From UHGV virus genome UHGV-0129090: a stretch of 34,582 bases of DNA. The stretch is one strand, 5' to 3'. Source of the DNA: a virus. Position numbers and translations under genes: made by a program. This document shows positions 720 to 28,558 of this stretch, one piece after another; the first letter of the stretch is position 1, and every line of letters starts with the position of its first letter. The notes below the pieces were generated by a model that was given only the letters and a program-made list of their open reading frames with translations, was not told the DNA's origin and ran no database searches.

Positions 720-1013
720 CTAAATGCCACCAATCAAGACCATTAAGATCCTGAAAATTGGTTCTAATGGTAACTGTATTAGTGCGATCCCTAACCAGTC
801 GGCAAAAGGGATAATTATATAAGAATATAAAATAATTAGCGTTAAAACCATCCCCAGCACATTACGCCAATGAATACTATTTCTCTCTACTTCTATTTTG
901 TTTAGTTCTATTTGTCCATCTTCTTTTTTTACTTCTACTTCATGCTCTACTATCTTCGTTTTAGTAAAATAACCTACGGCGACCTTTACTAATTCTACTA
1001 TGACATTAATCAT
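720..1013 (-). CDS. Small membrane protein, possible holin (3-TM, GTA/HK97-cluster type)
   Basis: 97 aa. A charged N-terminal segment (HEVEVKKEDGQIELNKIEVERNS) is followed by an HWRN motif and two to three hydrophobic spans (VLGMVLTLIILYSYIIIPF, IALIQLPL, ILMVLIGGI). It is the last gene before attL and overlaps the upstream gene by 4 nt. The family assignment is from memory only. Confidence 0.35.
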   Translation of the reverse strand: MINVIVELVKVAVGYFTKTKIVEHEVEVKKEDGQIELNKIEVERNSIHWRNVLGMVLTLIILYSYIIIPFADWLGIALIQLPLEPIFRILMVLIGGI

Positions 1014-1330
1014 TTTTTTACTCCTATTACGTATTGGAAGAATTTTCTACCCTTTACACTTAGGAAGTGAGAGCCTAATAGAACTACTTCAAATGGAACA
1101 CCCTTATAAGTCCATGTAAGAGTATCGCCATCTTTCCATTGATCTTGTTTATAGCAAAATACTACATTCATATAAGACAATATATCCGGTGCAAAGGCTT
1201 TTATATTCTTTTTTATTTTTTTATTATCTAGCTGAAAAAGTTCGAACTGGTAGGAGTTACCAAAAGGGGTAACTCCATCAAGTGTAATTTCTGATACTTC
1301 TTCGCCATAGTGATGATCTTCTAAATTCAT
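1010..1330 (-). CDS. Hypothetical protein (106 aa)
   Basis: The ORF is in tight operon spacing: a 3-nt gap to the upstream gene and a 4-nt overlap with the downstream gene. I recognised no motif. Confidence 0.6.
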   Translation of the reverse strand: MNLEDHHYGEEVSEITLDGVTPFGNSYQFELFQLDNKKIKKNIKAFAPDILSYMNVVFCYKQDQWKDGDTLTWTYKGVPFEVVLLGSHFLSVKGRKFFQYVIGVKK

Positions 1331-1333
1331 TTA

Positions 1334-2839
<1,506 letters not shown>

Positions 2840-2848
2840 GAAATAATG

Positions 2849-2877
2849 AAGGGGCAAAACGCCCCTTTATTTTTTTT
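2849..2877 (+). terminator. Rho-independent terminator after the endolysin gene
   Basis: AAGGGGC-AAAAC-GCCCCTT (stem 2849-2855 / 2861-2867) is followed by a long T-run to 2877. It lies at the convergence point with the minus-strand 88-aa gene. Confidence 0.7.
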
Positions 2878-3133
2878 CTAATATTGCTATCACACGTTCA
2901 ATCTTTAGATCCATTGAATGAATCTGAGAACGTAAATCATTAAGTGCGAACTCTAGATCGTCCTGACCCTTTTCTAACCTTTCTACATCTGATTTAGTAT
3001 GTACTAAGTCGGACTCGATTTTAGCTAGTCGTGATTCAACTGATTTTAAGTCTGCTGATTTATCTCTAATGATATTCCAGACAAAAGCACCTAACGCTAT
3101 TATGACGGCAATAATACTTTCCCATCCTGCCAT
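2867..3133 (-). CDS. N-terminally membrane-anchored coiled-coil protein (88 aa); possible i-spanin-like or holin-related lysis factor
   Basis: MAGWESIIAVIIALGAFVWNII is a single TM segment. It is followed by heptad-like charged sequence (LKSVESRLAKIESDLVHTKSDVERLEKGQDDLEFALNDLRSQI). The gene converges on the endolysin gene. I found no embedded or adjacent lipoprotein (o-spanin) ORF. Confidence 0.4.
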   Translation of the reverse strand: MAGWESIIAVIIALGAFVWNIIRDKSADLKSVESRLAKIESDLVHTKSDVERLEKGQDDLEFALNDLRSQIHSMDLKIERVIAILEKK

Positions 3134-4395: not shown

Positions 4396-8089
<3,694 letters not shown>

Positions 8090-8090
<1 letters not shown>

Positions 8091-8725
8091 TAGTTCATCT
8101 TCCATGTTTGGTTAGCTTGGTTTACCTGTCCTAGTAGTGACATAAACTCATCGCCTGGGTAATATGATTGATATACGCTATTACTTGCAATAGTACGTGT
8201 CTGAACGTCTAGTTTTTGGAATATACTATTTACGTTTACTGTCATCTCTGTTTTTCCATCAATTGGGTTAGCTACTGCCTGACAGTAGTCAATGAATCCA
8301 GAGAACATCAACATTTGATAGAGTGGTGTAGTAGTATAGGGATCAAGGATTACCATATAGATATTAATTTTAGCTTTGAATAGACCACCTGAGAGAGCAA
8401 GCATCTGTACTGAGTTATCAATATTACTTACTTTAAAAGAGATGGCATTATTACTAATTCCTTTTTCTTCGCTAAATGCTGGTAGTGAGTCCTGCACAAT
8501 ATCGGGGAATGATAGATAAGTTACACTATTCATATTGATATTAATAAAAGCATCAGTCCAGTGAATGCCATTTGCATTTTTTGGGAATACATCAAAACAT
8601 GTTACGTGTTGCCCCATACTCATAATCTCTTGATCTGATAATTTAGTTTTTGGTGCACCACTATTACGGGTTAAATTCCAATACTTTAGAAGATTGGCAT
8701 TAGTCGAGATTGTATCAAGTGCCAT
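8090..8725 (-). CDS. Minor tail protein, lambda gpL-like (tail tip hub component)
   Basis: About 211 aa, sitting after the M/Dit-like gene. The sequence pattern (TYLSFPDIVQDSLPAFSEEKGISNNAISFKVSNIDNSVQMLALSGGLFKAKINIYMVIL) is consistent with the gpL family as I remember it. A TAATG overlap with the upstream gene marks the start. Confidence 0.55.
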
Positions 8726-21063: not shown

Positions 21064-22977
21064 TTATTTAAAGAATCCACCACCTTTACGCGGCCTTATT
21101 ACTCGTTTTGGAGTTGGCTTAGTTGGTGCTTCTTCTGTATTTACTTCTTTATTTAGTCCTGCTTTCTCTTTTTGTTTCGCGTTGTATTCCCTTAGTTGTC
21201 GGAATGGTTGACTACCTAACTTAGATAGATACCACTGGAAACATATAAGCGAGTAATTAAGACAATCGAGAGTTTCATTCCTCGCACTACTAACCTTTTT
21301 CACCCATACCCAGGCACCAGCCTTTATCACTCGTTTCTCGGATGTAATCTGAATAAAGTAATCATCTGGTAATGAATGGCTGAAATGTATTTGTACTTCC
21401 TTACTATTTTCACTATCGGATACAGCACGGTTTAACAATTGTCTAACGTTCGTTTTACCTAAGTTTACATTAAGGTTAATCAGGGAGTGACCACCAGCGG
21501 TACTACCTTTGAATAGTGGGTTTGAGTTAGACGTACCACCCTTAATAGGTTTAAAGATAGTAGAGTTACTGCAATAACGATATACGGTACTGGTTGCGTT
21601 GCCATTACTACTATCGACGAATCCAGCTAATACTTTAAGTGGTTTACCCGAATGTGTTTTCAATGGGGAATTGGCAAAGGCCGTTAGTTTATTCCATGCT
21701 GGGGCTTCGATTTTAGTACAGTCAATTGCGTATATACTGCGATGATCTAAAACATAGAGATTCTTCTCACTTACTCCTAGTGTAGTTACCTCCAACCTGT
21801 CGAGCTGCTGATCGACGCCGTATACCACCCCTAGTACATCGTCGGGTATATTATTAATATCTATTTCACTATCTCTTAGGTTCTCTAACAGTACCAAATC
21901 ATGGTCGGTATTCTCTTTATCAATATATGGTAGTCCTAAGACGTTGTTATAGAATGATGCTAGGTCAAAGGTATAATGTGCTTCGGCAAAGTCTGCCACA
22001 ATTGATTTTATGGAATTGATGGGGGAATAGAGTCTAGATATGTGATAGCCCATTATATCGGTTACTTCTGGTGCTGTTACTATCCATTCACCTTTACGGA
22101 TCATTCGTACGCGTTCTGCTTCGGTGATTACATTATTACACTTAGGACATTCTAGTCTTGCAGTGTCTGCATCAGGTATACGACGGCGACCGCCTTCAAT
22201 AATTTTCCATTCGAATTTAACATTCTCAAATACCATTTCGTGAGAGTGGTTACAGTGAGGGCAAGGTACATAAAACTTTTGTTTATTACTTTGTTCGTAC
22301 TGTTGGGTAATCAGGTCATGTTCATCAAGTGGAGTAGAACAGCACATAATAAGGGGGTTACTAAATGCCTTAGTACGCTGTTCGGCGAGTTTTAAGGGGT
22401 TGCCTTCTTCGCCTAAAGCGTCAACGTTCGAAATTTCATCCAAAAATACGCGAGGGGCCGTTAGACCACGTAGTGAAGCACTACTACCCAATGACAGGAA
22501 GTAGGTAAACGTACCATCTAAATTTTGTTGTGTCTTATCGTTATTAGTATAGTTCTTGTCGTTCTTATTACTAACGAGATTCTTTAGTACCGGACACGCT
22601 TCTATCACTGCCTGCCATTTACCAGTACGGAACTTACTAGTAGTACCACCAGTAGCACCGCCAAATATCATGTTACTTGGATCATTGGCTAGGAAGTAGT
22701 ACATACTATTCTGTAGTACCGTTGTCTTGAGAAGTTGAGCACTGCTCATGAGGACCACTTTGCGGACGCGTGGATTCACGATATCGTTAATGGGTTTATG
22801 CTGGAAGGCGAATAATTTAACACGCTGCCCCTGTAGTTCGCCGTCCGGGAAGACTAGATTACTCTCTACCCAATCCGCTGGTAGTTGTTTCTTCGGAGGT
22901 AGGATTGACTTCGCCGCCCTCGTTAGGATCTTCATCATCTTCTGGTAGTTGTTCTTCATATGTTCCCTCATATTCAT
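21064..22977 (-). CDS. Terminase large subunit, lambda gpA-like (637 aa)
   Basis: Size and position fit. There is a Walker-B-like VFLDEISNV and paired Cys motifs CPHCNHSHE...CPKCNN, which are typical of gpA-family terminases. The start overlaps the TerS 3' end, so the true start may be an internal Met. Confidence 0.8.
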   Translation of the reverse strand: MNMREHMKNNYQKMMKILTRAAKSILPPKKQLPADWVESNLVFPDGELQGQRVKLFAFQHKPINDIVNPRVRKVVLMSSAQLLKTTVLQNSMYYFLANDPSNMIFGGATGGTTSKFRTGKWQAVIEACPVLKNLVSNKNDKNYTNNDKTQQNLDGTFTYFLSLGSSASLRGLTAPRVFLDEISNVDALGEEGNPLKLAEQRTKAFSNPLIMCCSTPLDEHDLITQQYEQSNKQKFYVPCPHCNHSHEMVFENVKFEWKIIEGGRRRIPDADTARLECPKCNNVITEAERVRMIRKGEWIVTAPEVTDIMGYHISRLYSPINSIKSIVADFAEAHYTFDLASFYNNVLGLPYIDKENTDHDLVLLENLRDSEIDINNIPDDVLGVVYGVDQQLDRLEVTTLGVSEKNLYVLDHRSIYAIDCTKIEAPAWNKLTAFANSPLKTHSGKPLKVLAGFVDSSNGNATSTVYRYCSNSTIFKPIKGGTSNSNPLFKGSTAGGHSLINLNVNLGKTNVRQLLNRAVSDSENSKEVQIHFSHSLPDDYFIQITSEKRVIKAGAWVWVKKVSSARNETLDCLNYSLICFQWYLSKLGSQPFRQLREYNAKQKEKAGLNKEVNTEEAPTKPTPKRVIRPRKGGGFFK

Positions 22978-23428
22978 AACCGCCGATTTCTTCTAACTGG
23001 CGGTCTATCTTGTCCTGTAATTTAATTTTTAGTTCTAGAGCGTCCTGTGATTCAAATAGTTCTACATAACTTGCCGCCGGAATACTTCTTAGTACCTGAC
23101 GTAGTTGATAGAAATATTGTGATAATGTTTGCTGTACTACTGCTACCGGAATTAGTTCTCCAGATTGCTGGCGTAGTTCTAATTCTTTTAGGTCTGCTTC
23201 TGCTTCCAGTTTGCGTAGGGTTGCTTTATGAATCATTCCCTTTACATCACCATTACGCATGGGTTCGATTACGTTCGCCAATAGCCAGTCGTCTACTAAT
23301 TTCTTAGGCCAGCTAATATCCAGTCCTTTACCAGACCAGATACGGGATACTGTGGAATGTTCTACCCCGAATCTGTCGGCAATTTCTTGCCATGAATAGC
23401 GGGTTCCATCGTCTTTATTTTTTGCCAT
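22859..23428 (-). CDS. Terminase small subunit (HTH N-terminus), about 189 aa
   Basis: It lies directly upstream of TerL. MAKNKDDGTRYSWQEIADRFGVEHSTVSRIW is an HTH-like DNA-binding start, followed by a coiled coil and an acidic tail. I chose the ATG at 23428 as the start (AGGAAATCAC ATG). Confidence 0.65.
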   Translation of the reverse strand: MAKNKDDGTRYSWQEIADRFGVEHSTVSRIWSGKGLDISWPKKLVDDWLLANVIEPMRNGDVKGMIHKATLRKLEAEADLKELELRQQSGELIPVAVVQQTLSQYFYQLRQVLRSIPAASYVELFESQDALELKIKLQDKIDRQLEEIGGYEYEGTYEEQLPEDDEDPNEGGEVNPTSEETTTSGLGRE

Positions 23429-23559
23429 GTGATTTCCTATGCATATTTTATTCACTTTTGATTGATTGGTATTTTCTATCTATTTCGGTACTGATAGATT
23501 TTATCTATAGATTTGTTTGTTTTATGTAAAATTTCTCACGTATTTTTATTATAACTCGC

Positions 23560-23583
23560 GGCCAAACTTCGCATAGTTTGGCC
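23560..23583. repeat. Perfect 9-bp inverted repeat GGCCAAACT-N6-AGTTTGGCC upstream of the terminase operon
   Basis: Read directly from the sequence. It is followed on the minus strand by GCGAGTTATAAT (a perfect TATAAT at plus 23548-23553). It could be a packaging (cos/terminase-binding) or late-promoter element. The function is unknown. Confidence 0.35.
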
Positions 23584-23743
23584 TATTCAGGAGAACCTAC
23601 CTAAAGTCAAGGGAGTGATTCCATTTTTTTATCTTTTATTTAATATAAAGCACAAATTGCACAAAATCTTGATAGCTTTTACATATCAGTACCGAAGTAT
23701 ACCATCATTCTATTATTCACTGTTTATGCATTGTCTATGCAAT

Positions 23744-24130
23744 CTACTTGAGTATCACCATATTACTAACGATTACATCACAACGATAAGAGATAGGCAG
23801 ACCATCTACGGTACGGTACTGTAAGATCTCGTCGCGTAGTTCCCTTAGTCGGGTTAAGTGTGGTAGCTCACTACCGCTGAATGTATCTAGTGCATTGATA
23901 GGGTAATTAGTACGGCCTATGGTGAAGCGTGAGTAGTTTAATGTAATGTATTTATACTTAAGCGTTAGTGTATAGGTATCTATGAATAGCTCGTAACCGT
24001 CCTGTGTGATGATATGAGCGGTTATTAGCTTATCCTTGCGTGATGGTATGTATCCTGATTCCTGTCGGCCTGTGGTGCTTTCTATGGCCTTATACGTTCC
24101 ATCAGGGAAGTGTAGGTAGATTGTATTCAT
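23744..24130 (-). CDS. Hypothetical protein (128 aa)
   Basis: A long ORF co-oriented with the neighbouring genes. No motif recognised. Confidence 0.6.
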   Translation of the reverse strand: MNTIYLHFPDGTYKAIESTTGRQESGYIPSRKDKLITAHIITQDGYELFIDTYTLTLKYKYITLNYSRFTIGRTNYPINALDTFSGSELPHLTRLRELRDEILQYRTVDGLPISYRCDVIVSNMVILK

Positions 24131-24176
24131 GGTGTGATACTCCTATAGCATGTATAGGAGTATTTAGGGGATGGGA

Positions 24177-24833
24177 TTACTTGAAGTGGCGTTTACCAGT
24201 ATAGCTAGTTACGTATTCAGTATAGCCAGGTATATGTACTGGTGATTGATCTTGTAGCTGTTCTGCCGTTCCATCTGTGAATACTACACGATTTGGATGT
24301 GGGGCACATGGTTTATAGTGTTGTAGGATAAATTCTTTATTATCACTATATTGTAATGAGTCATAAGCTACTACACGTTTGCGATCTTTTAGATATACAT
24401 CATACTTCATTTCTTCCTGTACATCTGGCGGTAGATCTTTGAACAATAAGTTTTCATCAGTAGATATAGTTACGGTTATCTTTGATTTTAGTTCTAATGC
24501 GTAGTGAACTAATACACCGCCAAAATAACGATTAGTACAGCCATGATAATCACCATATAGAGAAGAATAGATAATTGAATCTAGTGCCTCTATTGGATCG
24601 TCTAACCGTTCTGATACTATTTTACGATGTTCATGACGTAAGCGGGATAGATTATCACGGATTTCTACGCAGTCTTCGCTGAGATAGAAACGATAACCTT
24701 TACCTAAATTGAAATGACCTACCCCGATTAGTTCGAATCCCGGCTTACTGGAAGGACGAATATCAATAGTACATGTAAGTCCTTTGCGGTGATCGTGCAT
24801 AATAAATTCTTCAAATAGTTCTTTACCTGTCAT
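24177..24833 (-). CDS. Hypothetical protein (218 aa)
   Basis: A long co-oriented ORF with GAGGAAAAA upstream of the ATG. No motif recognised. Confidence 0.65.
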   Translation of the reverse strand: MTGKELFEEFIMHDHRKGLTCTIDIRPSSKPGFELIGVGHFNLGKGYRFYLSEDCVEIRDNLSRLRHEHRKIVSERLDDPIEALDSIIYSSLYGDYHGCTNRYFGGVLVHYALELKSKITVTISTDENLLFKDLPPDVQEEMKYDVYLKDRKRVVAYDSLQYSDNKEFILQHYKPCAPHPNRVVFTDGTAEQLQDQSPVHIPGYTEYVTSYTGKRHFK

Positions 24834-24857
24834 TATATTTTTCCTCGTTAGATTGAA

Positions 24858-24881
24858 TAGCCCACTGTGAGTAGTGGGCTA
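24858..24881. repeat. Palindrome/hairpin TAGCCCACT-N6-AGTGGGCTA (member 1 of the AGCCCAC family)
   Basis: A 9-bp perfect stem in the 53-bp gap between the 157-aa and 218-aa genes. No T-run follows on either strand. Confidence 0.6.
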
Positions 24882-24886
24882 GATTA

Positions 24887-25360
24887 TTAGTTGGTTACTG
24901 TCATTGATAGAAGGCGAACTATAATTTCTGCTGCATCGCCTGTAATAGTGGTTGGTGGGTTATTATTTGGATCATATACCGTCACACTATTATAATCAGT
25001 GGGTACTACACGACCTATACCGGATAACCTTGCAGCATGGTAATCAGTGTTTTCAAATACACGATCTTCTTCTAATACATTATGAAAGCAAAACGTACCT
25101 AATGCTAAATCACTAATTTGATCTGGTTTAGTAGTGGGATTAGTACAGCGATTCTGTGCGAAGCTATGAAAAGCTGCTGCATCATCGATATGATCACCCC
25201 AATGTGATTTTTTATCGGTGTTTCCCTCATACCATGAATCATTATTCTCTACTACTGTATGACCAGTTTTAGTATTGTGTACTAATACAATTTCATTAGT
25301 ACGGCTACTTAGTGTCACTTCTACATCTGGAAGTGAAGGAATGTTTTTTATAATTTTCAT
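24887..25360 (-). CDS. Hypothetical protein (157 aa)
   Basis: A long co-oriented ORF with AAGGAAAG upstream. No motif recognised. Confidence 0.65.
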   Translation of the reverse strand: MKIIKNIPSLPDVEVTLSSRTNEIVLVHNTKTGHTVVENNDSWYEGNTDKKSHWGDHIDDAAAFHSFAQNRCTNPTTKPDQISDLALGTFCFHNVLEEDRVFENTDYHAARLSGIGRVVPTDYNSVTVYDPNNNPPTTITGDAAEIIVRLLSMTVTN

Positions 25361-25383
25361 TTACTTTCCTTATTAGATTAAAA

Positions 25384-25405
25384 AGCCCACTAATAAAAGT
25401 GGGCT
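25384..25405 (-). terminator. Hairpin AGCCCACT-N6-AGTGGGCT (member 2 of the AGCCCAC family); possible minus-strand attenuator
   Basis: An 8-bp perfect stem. On the minus strand it is followed by TTTTTAATCT. It lies between the 69-aa and 157-aa genes. Confidence 0.5.
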
Positions 25406-25411
25406 ATATTA

Positions 25412-25621
25412 TTAGTTAGTATCGAATAATGGCGGTATTTGTGGTATTTCTACTTCCCCTTCAATTGGTTTGCCGTATTGGTCTGCTACCTTTATTACAG
25501 TTTCCTTATAAGGATTAATACTATAATAGTGTTGATGGTCTTCGGTACTAACAATGATACGCTCAATACTCATATTATATTCCGTGATATTACGGATTGC
25601 TTTAATTAGTTTCTCTGACAT
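25412..25621 (-). CDS. Hypothetical protein (69 aa)
   Basis: A co-oriented ORF in tight spacing. No motif recognised. Confidence 0.5.
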   Translation of the reverse strand: MSEKLIKAIRNITEYNMSIERIIVSTEDHQHYYSINPYKETVIKVADQYGKPIEGEVEIPQIPPLFDTN

Positions 25622-25630
25622 ATATATCCC

Positions 25631-26017
25631 TTATTTTATTTTAACGCAGTTTTGAAAGTAGTAATTACGAGTATCAGATCTCAATAAGAAGATAAAAGTA
25701 ATATCGTTTTGCTCTTTACTTCCCATTGTTGCAAGGAAGTATCGCTGCCTATCATTATCATAAGCCATTGTCATTGAATCATTAGATTCTATTGGTCCGG
25801 TGGCGTGAGTCATTGCACCGAAGTTAAGGATAAAACCATCACTATTAACTTTAGCGTGACCTGCACCAGAATAAGAAGATTTTTCTACTGGAGTATCACC
25901 CAGCATTTCAACTACTTTCACATCACATTGATACAATCCCTGCTCTGGTAGAGAGTGAGTGTTAGCCAGTACCGAAGGAGCTACTAACAGTAATGCAGAT
26001 ACGATAACCTTTTTCAT
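25631..26017 (-). CDS. Secreted (periplasmic) protein, paralog 1 (128 aa)
   Basis: It has a Sec-type signal peptide MKKVIVSALLLVAPSVLA|NT. Two conserved Cys (LYQCDV near the N-terminus, FQNCVKI at the C-terminus) suggest a periplasmic disulfide. Confidence 0.7.
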   Translation of the reverse strand: MKKVIVSALLLVAPSVLANTHSLPEQGLYQCDVKVVEMLGDTPVEKSSYSGAGHAKVNSDGFILNFGAMTHATGPIESNDSMTMAYDNDRQRYFLATMGSKEQNDITFIFLLRSDTRNYYFQNCVKIK

Positions 26018-26026
26018 TTCTATTCC

Positions 26027-26407
26027 TTATTCAATAATACAATTGGAGAAGTTCAAAAATACGGGATTATTCTCATTGCTGACCATATACTGTGTTTTAC
26101 CATCGATTGCACTAATAATAATATCGTACTGGTCAGTATCTACGGCATAGGCCATCAGGCGACCGCTTTTAAGTTTTGAAACAGGGCTGAATGAAATATT
26201 CACATCCCTAAACTTCACACTAACAGCACGGTTATCAATACTCACATAACCAGTCATACCATAATAACCAGTCTTTACTACTCGCTTTCCTACCTGTTCC
26301 CACGATTCAACACCGCAACGATACAGACCATCATCAGGGAGTATTACATTTACTGCCAGTACCGAAGGGGCTACTAACAGTAATGCAGACAGTACAATCT
26401 TTTTCAT
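26027..26407 (-). CDS. Secreted (periplasmic) protein, paralog 2 (126 aa from MKKIVLS)
   Basis: Its signal peptide is nearly identical: MKKIVLSALLLVAPSVLA|VN. The same two-Cys framework is present (LYRCGV ... FSNCIIE). I set the start at 26407 by homology with paralog 1. Confidence 0.7.
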   Translation of the reverse strand: MKKIVLSALLLVAPSVLAVNVILPDDGLYRCGVESWEQVGKRVVKTGYYGMTGYVSIDNRAVSVKFRDVNISFSPVSKLKSGRLMAYAVDTDQYDIIISAIDGKTQYMVSNENNPVFLNFSNCIIE

Positions 26408-26500
26408 AAATTCATCCATTCGGGATTATCTACTTTATCAGAATCAATGGCATTGTTGATGCCAGATAATGACAGTGTTTTTGATTACGGCGACTGCAAT

Positions 26501-26587
26501 TTAATAAGTAGGGTTAATGTATTTTATTATATCATAGTAATATGCAGTCCCCATAACTAAAAGTACGGCAAATATTGTTTTCTTCAT
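26501..26587 (-). CDS. Unannotated 28-codon hydrophobic micro-ORF (MKKTIFAVLLVMGTAYYYDIIKYINPTY), coupled to the lipoprotein gene
   Basis: I translated this by hand. Its ATG shares one base with the TGA of the lipoprotein gene (TGATG). It has a signal/TM-like N-terminus. At 28 aa it is too short for the supplied ORF track. There is no strong SD, so it would rely on termination-reinitiation. Confidence 0.35.
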   Translation of the reverse strand: MKKTIFAVLLVMGTAYYYDIIKYINPTY

Positions 26588-26967
26588 CACAGATTATCGT
26601 CTATATAATTAGTTGGTTTCGAGAACTCAAATTCTGTACCGTAATTATTTGAACGATCAACTATCTTAGTGGTGTTTTTGTGGGGGCCGTGGGCTTTATG
26701 TTCTTCGAAGCTATGAATATTTGTAAGTCGGTCGGCGGCAATAATACAGCTACCAGTAGATGGGCGTTCTTCACCCAATAGCATAGGCTGACAATCACTA
26801 CTGAATTGTGGGCGATACTCTTTACCACCATTTACGGGGAATAATACTAGTGTACGACCGTTAATATCACCTACTACGGCTTCATTCATAAAAGCAGGCG
26901 TTATAGTAGTACAGCCAGTAGTGATTGTAGCCGTAGCGAGTACAGCTAGGGCAAAGAGATGTTTCAT
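26587..26967 (-). CDS. Prophage lipoprotein (126 aa)
   Basis: MKHLFALAVLATATITTG|C is a signal peptide ending in a lipobox-like TTGC with Cys19. The mature part is hydrophilic and has one more Cys pair. Confidence 0.65.
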   Translation of the reverse strand: MKHLFALAVLATATITTGCTTITPAFMNEAVVGDINGRTLVLFPVNGGKEYRPQFSSDCQPMLLGEERPSTGSCIIAADRLTNIHSFEEHKAHGPHKNTTKIVDRSNNYGTEFEFSKPTNYIDDNL

Positions 26968-27075
26968 TAGTAAATCCTTGTAGTGATTGTGTGGAGTGAT
27001 GCTTGATGTGAATTATTATAGCTATGATATTTAGTAATAGCTACTACTTTATTTGTGTAGTAGCTATTATTATTC

Positions 27076-27729
27076 TTATACTACCTTATAGGCTTTAGTA
27101 ACAAGCTCTTTGAAGTCTTGCTCGTCGGCCTGTTTAGGATACTGCTGCTTGTACTCGGCGTAGTATTCTTGTGCTTTCGCGTTCATCTTCCCTTTCTGGT
27201 TTAGATGGAACTCATGACCGTTCCACTTCGCATTAAGCGGGTATTTTTTGCGATAGTCCTCACTATACGCCCGTAAAAACTCGTCAACGTCCGATAGTTC
27301 GGGATTCTTCTTAACCAACTGAATGTATACTTCATCCTTGAGTAATGCCGCTGGTAACTTCTTATTGATTACATTATAGGTTCTTCTTTCGTCCTTCTTG
27401 CTATCAACTATGACTACTTCGAATATCTTATTACCGTTTGGCTTCGATGCTTTTTGTGGTATGGAAGCAGGAGAAGATACGGCAAGTGTAGAAAGCAGTT
27501 CCTCTACACTAGAGAAGCTACCAGACTCTTGTACAAGTGATTCTAATAGCTTCTTAGCTTCGTTTAGTCGCTCGGTACGTAGTGTGCTTACATAGTCCTT
27601 CACTTCGCCCAGGCGTTGAATAAGTGTATCTATATCTTCTTCGTTGACGTTTGCCAGTGCATTGCGGCCTGTTGCGTCGGCAGTCAACATACCTACATTA
27701 AAATCATCATTCAGAATCGTACTGATCAT
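27076..27729 (-). CDS. Hypothetical protein (217 aa from MISTILND); faint H-NS-like layout
   Basis: I chose the start at 27729 because of an ATGA overlap with the upstream 73-aa gene. The segment IDTLIQRLGEVKDYVSTLRTERLNEAKKLLESLVQESGSFSSVEELLSTL recalls the H-NS oligomerisation region plus its ELL linker. A Lys-rich middle and a 100-aa C-terminal region with no match follow. The evidence is weak. Confidence 0.25.
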   Translation of the reverse strand: MISTILNDDFNVGMLTADATGRNALANVNEEDIDTLIQRLGEVKDYVSTLRTERLNEAKKLLESLVQESGSFSSVEELLSTLAVSSPASIPQKASKPNGNKIFEVVIVDSKKDERRTYNVINKKLPAALLKDEVYIQLVKKNPELSDVDEFLRAYSEDYRKKYPLNAKWNGHEFHLNQKGKMNAKAQEYYAEYKQQYPKQADEQDFKELVTKAYKVV

Positions 27730-27947
27730 TTTTGCGGTAATGCTTTTAATGCTTCCCATAATACAGCCTCATTTGGTTTTAACAGTAACTGAGTACAATC
27801 GGTTAGTTTATCTAGATTTGCAAGTGGGATCTCCTTCAAAGTGTTTATCATCTCACTGGTAAGACCAAATTCACTTAGTAGATCTTCTTCGGAAAGTTTC
27901 CGTACTGTATCTATATAGAGCACGTTTAGCTCATTAAGATCATTCAT
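27726..27947 (-). CDS. FlhD-like small helical protein (73 aa)
   Basis: SEFGLTSEMINTLKEIPLANLDKLTDCTQLLLKP aligns by eye with E. coli FlhD [34 protein letters not shown], about 10 identities in 34 positions from memory. It has ATGA overlaps with both neighbours. Confidence 0.35.
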   Translation of the reverse strand: MNDLNELNVLYIDTVRKLSEEDLLSEFGLTSEMINTLKEIPLANLDKLTDCTQLLLKPNEAVLWEALKALPQK

Positions 27948-28141
27948 AGCTTAATGTTCACGCGTTTTCTAGTTAGTAAGTTCAATAGTGCTTCGTTATA
28001 GGTAGTGTGCCACGTCTTACCATCACTAAAAGGCTTATTGATGTGTCGGGGATGCTTAGACATAGTGACCGCCCCTACCTTTCGGTTGTGATCGTCGAAA
28101 ACTTCGGTTATAAGTCCACCAGCAATACAACTAATACGCAT
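27944..28141 (-). CDS. Hypothetical protein (65 aa from MRISCIAGG)
   Basis: This uses the first in-frame ATG. The longer version starts at a GTG and looks non-protein-like. It has an ATGA overlap with the downstream gene. Confidence 0.45.
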   Translation of the reverse strand: MRISCIAGGLITEVFDDHNRKVGAVTMSKHPRHINKPFSDGKTWHTTYNEALLNLLTRKRVNIKL

Positions 28142-28264
28142 GTAAAGATCCCAGCAATGAAGAAAAAGAAATTTGCAGCCGCAAGGTAAGTAAAGGTTAA
28201 TTTTTTCATAGAGTGTCCATATTAACACTACCAGTATATTTCCGGTACTAGTAGTGTAAATTGA

Positions 28265-28558
28265 TTAATGTACGTTAGTAATTTCTTCGGATACTACTTC
28301 TAGTAATGAAGCGAAAGCACGTTCACCATCGAATCGGGCAATAGTGATCTTATCGGTTACACTCTTAGGTAGATTGATGTTCTTTTCCCAATGGAACAAG
28401 CCACCAGACATAAGAAACATACTGAATAATTCACGCTCATTATGACGGGAACTAATTACTACATGAAACATTCCCGTTACACGATTATCAATCTCGTTAA
28501 TCTTGAATCCTAAATCATGTGCCTTAATGATCAAATCAGTAGATACACCCTTAGACAT
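28265..28558 (-). CDS. Hypothetical protein (97 aa)
   Basis: A co-oriented ORF and the first sizeable gene downstream of the predicted minus-strand promoter at 28667-28695. No motif recognised. Confidence 0.6.
   Translation of the reverse strand: MSKGVSTDLIIKAHDLGFKINEIDNRVTGMFHVVISSRHNERELFSMFLMSGGLFHWEKNINLPKSVTDKITIARFDGERAFASLLEVVSEEITNVH

Follow-up and report, generated by a model that had tools for sequence, protein, structure and literature searches.

Phages phi80, N15 and T1 encode Cor proteins, lipoproteins of the outer membrane that act on FhuA from its periplasmic face and block it. A block of FhuA from the same side has been described for Llp of phage T5 (bioRxiv 10.64898/2026.03.26.714494), and Spackle, a periplasmic protein of phage T4, acts as an inhibitor of the tail lysozyme gp5 (PMC7677548). 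The Neisseria protein ACP, an eight-stranded barrel in which a disulfide joins the first strand to the last, inhibits lysozyme without the motifs of MliC (PMC5507604). Here we describe a cluster of genes for exported proteins in the virus genome UHGV-0129090, a stretch of 34,582 nucleotides (nt) that we analysed over its whole length and call the window. The window is a segment of an Escherichia coli chromosome with a prophage of ~33 kb inside it (about 673-33850), in which nearly all transcription is on the minus strand. The cluster (25631-26967) occupies part of the interval between terS and the non-structural genes near the integrase, and comprises, in this order on the minus strand, a lipoprotein gene, a micro-open reading frame (micro-ORF) and the genes of two barrel proteins, paralogs A and B.

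The reading best supported by the sequence is that these are prophage accessory genes of the moron type, which send proteins to the envelope and sit in a recombination-prone slot. All four ORFs of a preliminary description made from the sequence alone are found on the minus strand where it placed them (Table 1). Its claim that the products are exported agrees with our predictions, which give a lipobox for the lipoprotein and signal peptides for A and B. An N-terminus made of Met-Lys and a hydrophobic stretch of the signal-peptide type is present in only 4 of the 45 prophage ORFs, and these are the contiguous genes of the cluster; if 45 genes were ordered at random, four named in advance would stand side by side with a probability of ~3e-4 (simple combinatorics). 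Scans of the four proteins and their neighbours with Pfam, PHROGs, NCBIfam and PADLOC returned only a chance-level PADLOC match (E value 0.016), in line with the earlier statement that no family could be recognised. Megablast of the DNA against 50,697 phage genomes gave no match, nothing was found in the JGI metagenomes and the GTDB genome set, and IMG/VR returned just two near-identical uncultivated virus genomes. Searching the literature by accession number or topic found no paper on these proteins, and Rfam recognised no RNA family anywhere in the window. What appears to be new is a rare protein family with a confidently predicted fold; the arrangement, a prophage accessory or defence hotspot, is of a known kind.

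A rare family of predicted secreted barrels

Paralogs A and B share 32% identity (BLASTP, E 5e-19). Their signal peptides are near-identical, as had been noted before, and the DNA encoding them is 89% identical over 53 nt (25965-26017 in B, 26355-26407 in A), whereas the mature parts cannot be aligned as DNA. An alternative upstream ATG at 26419 would lengthen paralog A to 130 amino acids (aa). A word-indexed search of 5.8 billion proteins found eight relatives for A and, for B, only itself; when a family profile was run with HMMER over 1.84 billion representatives, seven proteins matched. One of them, 1709 aa long, was treated as spurious, since it had no aligned stretch. Two more, P0016 and P0018 (the latter from Enterobacter hormaechei), are distant members of 164-165 aa, in which the barrel domain, with both cysteines, is preceded by a membrane anchor at the N-terminus and then by ~35 linker residues. 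Every source annotates the members as 'hypothetical protein', and megablast and tblastn against the 50,697 phage genomes gave no barrel match. By these searches the barrels appear to be a new and very rare protein family.

The pair of cysteines, one close to the N-terminus and one at the C-terminus, which the preliminary description had seen in A and B, is indeed conserved throughout the family. Both cysteines are invariant in all members, including the two distant ones, as are core residues from E. coli to Enterobacter. AlphaFold2 modelled the mature barrel domain with a predicted local distance difference test score (pLDDT) of 91.5 and a predicted template modelling score (pTM) of 0.84, as nine consecutive strands; the fold is thus confidently predicted to be a small closed up-and-down barrel. 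The model places Cys13 within strand one (9-21) and Cys105 within the final strand (96-107), in a register compatible with a disulfide that probably clamps these two strands together and closes the barrel. A structural check of the cluster had been proposed earlier; it gave a confident model for the barrel domain and a poor one for the lipoprotein. Foldseek with the barrel model retrieved only weak calycin matches from the PDB; among viral models, the best matches were uncharacterised phage proteins, some of them annotated as lipoproteins. A sequence search of the PDB also returned botulinum HA33 (E 6.5e-4 overall, independent E value of the domain 0.05). Since the confident model shows a barrel instead of a beta-trefoil, we put this match down to composition and rejected it.

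The invariant residues of the barrels are Gly, Tyr, Cys, Val and Phe, none of them polar. Residues 58-95, which make up the C-terminal half, vary far more than the N-terminal half does (mean pairwise identity 0.29 versus 0.49). The lack of an invariant polar residue, together with the hypervariable C-terminal half, therefore suggests that the barrels are most likely binding proteins with a variable surface, not enzymes.

The barrels might instead be lysogenic-conversion factors that serve the bacterial host and do not act against phages; they would inhibit c-type lysozyme of the host animal, as MliC/PliC and ACP do, or bind some other host factor, with the lipoprotein acting like lambda Bor in serum or envelope resistance and the cluster improving gut colonisation. 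The predicted fold class of the barrels is that of PliC, MliC and ACP, and in the model the two cysteines fall in the first and the last strand, as they do in ACP (PMC5507604). They also resemble E. coli MliC in the context of the cysteines, with Y-x-C (Y-Q-C) near the N-terminus, in the N-terminal strand, and N-C (N-N-C) near the C-terminus. The carriers, E. coli and Shigella sonnei with human stool and lettuce among the sources, and the accessory, moron-like layout would suit such factors as well. However, the barrels are longer than MliC/PliC (108 versus about 85 aa), have nine predicted strands, and other, unrelated barrels score equal or higher. The Pfam scan of the barrels gave no match to PF09864 (MliC/PliC) at E<=1. 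An alignment of the barrel family compared by hhalign with one of MliC/PliC, built from E. coli MliC (sequence verified against 2f09) and Pseudomonas and Brucella sequences, scored a probability of 0.2%. Neither of the lysozyme-binding motifs SxSGAxY and YxxxTKG is conserved in two barrel-family alignments; the 'YSGAGH' of paralog B sits in the beta2-beta3 region and is not common to the family. Because of the hhalign result and the missing motifs we rejected membership of the barrels in the MliC/PliC family. That they work in the manner of PliC/MliC is a weak proposal, since the barrel fold is generic. Against conversion also stand the absence of an invariant polar residue, the extreme rarity of the family and the fact that E. 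coli already has its own MliC, and we regard a conversion role as unlikely.

Lipoprotein, micro-ORF and variable slot

The N-terminus of the lipoprotein, MKHLFALAVLATATITTG↓CTT, fits a PROSITE-type lipobox rule, and among the ORFs in all six frames of the window it alone has a lipobox. The mature protein is 108 aa long, with further cysteines at 41 and 56. Because the +2 residue is Thr and not Asp (the +2 rule), it is predicted to be sorted to the outer membrane. The word-indexed search found six relatives (P0010-P0015), all with a lipobox (for example LVG↓C or ITG↓C). The ratio of nonsynonymous to synonymous polymorphism (pN/pS), which comes from comparisons among near-identical copies, is 0.07-0.25, indicating a real gene under constraint. 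The lipoprotein has no Pfam, PHROG, NCBIfam, PADLOC or PDB sequence match, and tblastn against the 50,697 phage records returned noise only, with no match of substance.

The ATG of the micro-ORF at 26587 shares its A with the TGA of the lipoprotein gene, so the TGATG overlap reported before is correct. The micro-ORF product has no evident cleavage site. The micro-ORF is conserved in the related loci L001, L002, L006, L007, L012 and L013 and absent from L003. In L005 its first 17 codons differ from those of the window at ~40% of nucleotides, with frame and hydrophobicity kept (MKKFLFIIALVCGIAYNY against MKKTIFAVLLVMGTAYYY for the diverged N-terminal halves), and the last 11 codons are identical; there it extends to 55 aa and has TAATG coupling to both neighbours. 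Because frame and hydrophobicity survive across the diverged segment, we take the micro-ORF to encode a real small membrane protein. The overlap has no slippery heptamer, which makes it unlikely that lipoprotein and micro-ORF are fused by a programmed frameshift.

Comparison with sibling prophages by blastn reveals a mosaic that defines a hypervariable slot, with flanks conserved at 94-97% (26310-28300) and 86-92% (22800-24168) identity. A conserved 227-aa gene bounds the slot on one side, and a conserved 125/128-aa gene and terS on the other; the left breakpoint falls within the N-terminal third of paralog A. The content of the slot differs from prophage to prophage, even where these are otherwise 95-97% identical (Table 1). 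The preliminary description had taken the genes for a module, and they are indeed accessory genes in a hypervariable slot with conserved flanks; they do not, however, form an obligate system. A lipoprotein gene without a barrel (L014) and a barrel without a lipoprotein gene (L008) show that the two assort independently and that neither is essential to the lineage. In L016 a frameshift splits the lipoprotein homologue into ORFs of 76 and 66 aa (6001-6362), a probable pseudogene, further evidence that the lipoprotein gene is dispensable.

Table 1. Features of the window and content of the variable slot in the window and related loci; positions refer to the window unless a locus is named.
Feature	Position	Strand	Remarks
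Lipoprotein precursor	26587-26967	(-)	126 aa; lipobox ITTG↓C, Cys19, +2 Thr
Micro-ORF	26501-26587	(-)	28 codons, hydrophobic (MKKTIFAVLLVMGTAYYYDIIKYINPTY); ATG overlaps lipoprotein stop by 1 nt (TGATG)
Barrel paralog A	26027-26407	(-)	126 aa from conserved MKK start; signal peptide MKKIVLSALLLVAPSVLA↓VN; mature 108 aa, Cys13 and Cys105
Barrel paralog B	25631-26017	(-)	128 aa; signal peptide MKKVIVSALLLVAPSVLA↓NT; mature 110 aa, Cys13 and Cys106
69-aa ORF	25412-25621	(-)	no export signal; last gene before terminator
Intrinsic-terminator-like hairpin	25384-25405	(-)	AGCCCAC-loop-GTGGGCT, then UUUUU; closes cassette
Upstream control region	27015-27072	(-)	hairpin and TATAAT before lipoprotein gene
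Hypervariable slot	24169-26309		blastn mosaic against sibling prophages
gpA-type terminase	21064-22977		followed by lambda-type portal, capsid gene, tail genes
Large serine recombinase	32206-33804		integration enzyme
GH24 endolysin (PF00959)	2387-2839	+
Candidate holin-like and i-spanin-like ORFs	720-3133
i-spanin-like protein	2867-3133		88 aa; transmembrane segment and coiled coil
Slot content, window/L001/L012/L013			lipoprotein, micro-ORF, A, B, 69-aa ORF
Slot content, L002	L002 5369-5827 (152-aa lipoprotein)		lipoprotein, micro-ORF, chimeric barrel, unrelated 152-aa lipoprotein in place of B
Slot content, L005-L007			lipoprotein, micro-ORF, different barrel allele, 232-aa protein
Slot content, L003			225-aa lipoprotein, 177-aa membrane protein, remnant of 126-aa lipoprotein gene, one barrel gene, convergent Old-type nuclease
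Slot content, L008			membrane-anchored barrel only
Slot content, L010 (Enterobacter)	L010 5678-6019 (113-aa protein)		113-aa secreted two-Cys protein, anchored barrel, 47-aa membrane ORF
Slot content, L014			lipoprotein homologue only
Slot content, L016	L016 6381-6710 (109-aa protein)		frameshifted lipoprotein, unrelated 109-aa secreted two-Cys protein

Exchange also reaches into the barrel gene. P0004 is a chimera that joins the N-terminal half of paralog A to the C-terminal half of allele P0005, and the breakpoints of L002 and L005 lie inside the barrel gene (window 26189-26310), in or just after the signal-peptide region. These mosaic alleles indicate that recombination swaps half-domains, beyond whole genes. 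The 69-aa ORF accompanies paralog B: L001, L012 and L013 have it, L002 does not. It has no Pfam or PHROG family match. The 152-aa lipoprotein of L002 and the secreted proteins of L010 (113 aa) and L016 (109 aa) were tried as divergent members of the barrel family and rejected, with hhalign probabilities <1% and no detectable relation. These slot-filling proteins are nevertheless small, beta-rich and exported, with one cysteine near each terminus, and may represent either extreme divergence of one fold or convergent design.

The 227-aa gene directly upstream of the slot (27076-27759, minus strand) is missing in L003 and L014 and is 31-39% identical among the Escherichia and Enterobacter prophages that carry it. 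Its pN/pS is 0.03-0.12, its product looks helical or coiled-coil in the N-terminal part, and no Pfam, PHROG or PDB match was found for it.

The slot of L003 holds, on the minus strand of that locus (6795-8615), a gene for a 606-aa OLD-family ATPase-TOPRIM nuclease, whose best PADLOC model is P2 Old (E 1.4e-74); the slot is thereby marked out as a hotspot of anti-phage genes. Between the barrel and Old genes of L003, the spacer (6563-6703) contains a short tandem repeat with the repeated translation 'HYSLLIT'. A defence hotspot would also suit orphan immunity proteins against periplasm-acting toxins (type VI secretion amidase or muramidase effectors, colicin M, pesticin-type bacteriocins) that are collected and diversified in a prophage slot, and tandem, diversified signal-peptide paralogs are typical of orphan immunity arrays. 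However, there is no cognate toxin gene nearby at any locus, the copies number only two, the proteins have no sequence match to known immunity families, and the position of the homologue is fixed in divergent prophages, unlike that of typical immunity islands. We consider orphan immunity quite improbable.

The prophage around the cluster

The prophage appears to belong to an undescribed lineage of temperate phages. Its DNA had no megablast match among the 50,697 phage records, and the nearest TerL among them is 37% identical. The locus is present in 2 of 5,426 complete E. coli genomes, one from human stool and one from lettuce; the carriers overall are E. coli and Shigella sonnei isolates. The prophage has a low G+C content (0.39), and the flanks (0.45-0.48) look like host DNA. 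It splits a host gene for an Hsp70/actin-like protein, presumably yegD, whose left part ends in ...GGTTDCS and whose right part restarts at LLLMGPQW.... No replication genes or classical repressor were recognised in the prophage, a 58-aa ribbon-helix-helix ORF (31562-31738) being the sole find.

Two genes of the prophage, both on the minus strand, are homing-endonuclease-like. The first (1909-2397) encodes a SegE-type GIY-YIG protein (Pfam E 2.6e-16) and abuts the oppositely oriented GH24 endolysin gene; the second (30886-31491), near the integrase end, encodes an HNH-type protein. Adjoining the integrase gene is a 60-aa ORF (31900-32082, minus strand) that consists of two hydrophobic helices and little else and has no family match; it could encode a small membrane toxin, a holin or an exclusion protein.

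In lambdoid phages the lysis genes are found just upstream of terS, a position that invites the reading of the cluster as phage lysis machinery, with the lipoprotein as an o-spanin, or as part of a split unimolecular spanin with the coupled membrane peptide, and the barrels as periplasmic regulators of lysis. That the lipoprotein is the sole lipobox ORF of the prophage, that the prophage encodes an i-spanin-like protein in which a transmembrane segment is combined with a coiled coil, and that the barrel homologues of L008 and L010 are membrane-anchored would agree with this. However, ~24 kb separate the cluster from the GH24 endolysin and the holin-like and i-spanin-like ORFs, which lie at the opposite end of the prophage, and a spanin lipoprotein gene is expected to adjoin, overlap or be embedded in the i-spanin gene in a lysis cassette, whereas the neighbours here are the 28-aa ORF and the barrels. 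A spanin should also be conserved in all functional relatives, yet the lipoprotein is absent from L008, frameshifted in L016 and a remnant in L003, and the barrel is absent from L014. The mature lipoprotein is also long for an o-spanin, and there is no slippery site to fuse it to the micro-ORF. Because of the distance of the lysis ORFs and the dispensability of the lipoprotein in relatives, we consider a lysis function very unlikely.

The hairpin that closes the cassette downstream has counterparts elsewhere. In L005, and also in L008, which is otherwise dissimilar, the same stem and U-run lie at the distal end of the variable cassette. The AGCCCAC/GTGGGCT stem recurs three times in the prophage, always between genes (24840-24895, 25365-25420 and 28995-29013), and is found in relatives at L005 7129-7149 and L008 2902-2921, usually with a U-run after it. 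Two of the three sites in the prophage are inside a 56-nt direct repeat (80% identical) that flanks a 157-aa gene. Since the stem is identical across copies and phages, it may be more than a generic terminator, which suggests a recognition site for a protein or RNA, or a junction for cassette recombination.

Upstream of the cluster, the stop codon of the 227-aa gene is followed directly by a hairpin with a 13-bp stem (27032-27072; dG -16.5, z -6.0). About 48 nt ahead of the lipoprotein ATG stands a perfect TATAAT (27020-27015), with a weak -35 element; in our reading of the sequence it is a candidate promoter, although the consensus scan did not flag it. The lipoprotein homologue of L014 has a promoter-like site (10/12 matches) and its own terminator and adjoins a divergently oriented gene, and is predicted to be a stand-alone transcription unit.

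A proposed role at the envelope

How closely does the cluster follow known accessory loci? It is like phage morons and hotspots (the morons of HK97 and lambda; old, tin and fun of P2) in its variable presence between conserved flanks, which we observed among closely related phage genomes (L001, L002, L003, L005, L008, L014 and L016), in the terminator that closes the unit, in the stand-alone lipoprotein gene of L014 with its promoter-like site and terminator, and in the P2 Old-type nuclease in the slot of L003. It differs in that its cargo is mainly exported proteins, not cytoplasmic defence systems, and in lacking a compositional difference and a convincing promoter in the window. Of the promoter and terminator that a moron would have of its own, the terminator is seen; the candidate promoter is the TATAAT with its weak -35.

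The most likely role of the moron-type cluster, which we put forward tentatively, would be protection of the envelope of the lysogen or infected cell, that is, superinfection exclusion. The cluster, as we infer, would be expressed from the prophage. Like T5 Llp and Cor, the lipoprotein would bind a component of the outer membrane from its periplasmic face, and the micro-ORF would supply a 28-aa membrane peptide whose translation is coupled to the lipoprotein gene. The barrels would be two soluble periplasmic proteins of ~12 kDa that bind some part of an incoming attacker exposed in the periplasm, and their specificity would be traded by recombination behind a constant signal peptide. As a target, the peptidoglycan-hydrolase (tail lysozyme) domain of an incoming phage is the most concrete candidate. 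Further along this line, the barrels might be an unrecognised family of periplasmic phage inhibitors of peptidoglycan hydrolases, with the hypervariable C-terminal half as the part that sets specificity; their targets would be enzymes of competing phages (tail lysozymes or endolysins) or else exogenous lysozymes. We regard this narrower proposal as doubtful. That the two barrels diversified against more than one target, as the preliminary description suggested, is likewise hypothetical. In a broader view, the lineage would keep a dedicated 'envelope-protein slot' whose successive occupants are small secreted two-Cys proteins and lipoproteins unrelated to one another.

The likeness to Llp and Cor lies in a small phage-encoded lipoprotein with predicted outer-membrane sorting (lipobox ITTG↓C, +2 Thr), whose extra cysteines could form a disulfide. 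Mature Llp and Cor, however, are about 60 aa long, compared with 108 aa here, and the lipoprotein lacks the PHROG, Pfam or NCBIfam match that would tie it to them. T4 Spackle is helical, whereas the barrels are all-beta in the model and have no sequence relation to it. The barrels are like Spackle in being small phage-encoded proteins exported by a signal peptide, and the proposed neutralisation of a hydrolase is the same (PMC7677548). For the barrels, Spackle would thus be the precedent for function, and PliC/ACP the precedent for the scaffold.

Several results weigh against an accessory cluster that protects the envelope. The preliminary description had pointed to Llp, Cor and the MliC/PliC fold as possible relatives, and this did not hold at the level of sequence, as the scans found no similarity to Llp, Cor, Spackle, MliC/PliC or any PADLOC defence model. 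The AlphaFold2 model of the lipoprotein is poor (pLDDT 55), too weak for a fold comparison with them. The G+C content of the cluster, 0.383, is no different from that of the rest of the prophage (0.394), and the consensus scan upstream of the cluster found no convincing sigma-70 promoter, with counts at chance level. Finally, a barrel homologue occupies the same syntenic slot in the divergent prophages L008 and L010. This fixed position could reflect a role in the phage's own cycle, and is the main point that a pure moron reading leaves unexplained.

If the cluster does block incoming phages or lytic enzymes, its products would be new and structurally distinct exclusion factors acting at the level of the envelope, a class much less catalogued than cytoplasmic defence systems. 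It would also illustrate how half-gene cassettes can carry an exchange of specificity while the signal peptide in front of them stays fixed. The locus marks a defence or accessory hotspot in what appears to be an undescribed prophage lineage of E. coli and Enterobacter, with exported proteins as cargo in most of the members examined and an Old nuclease in one, and may therefore be useful for mining.

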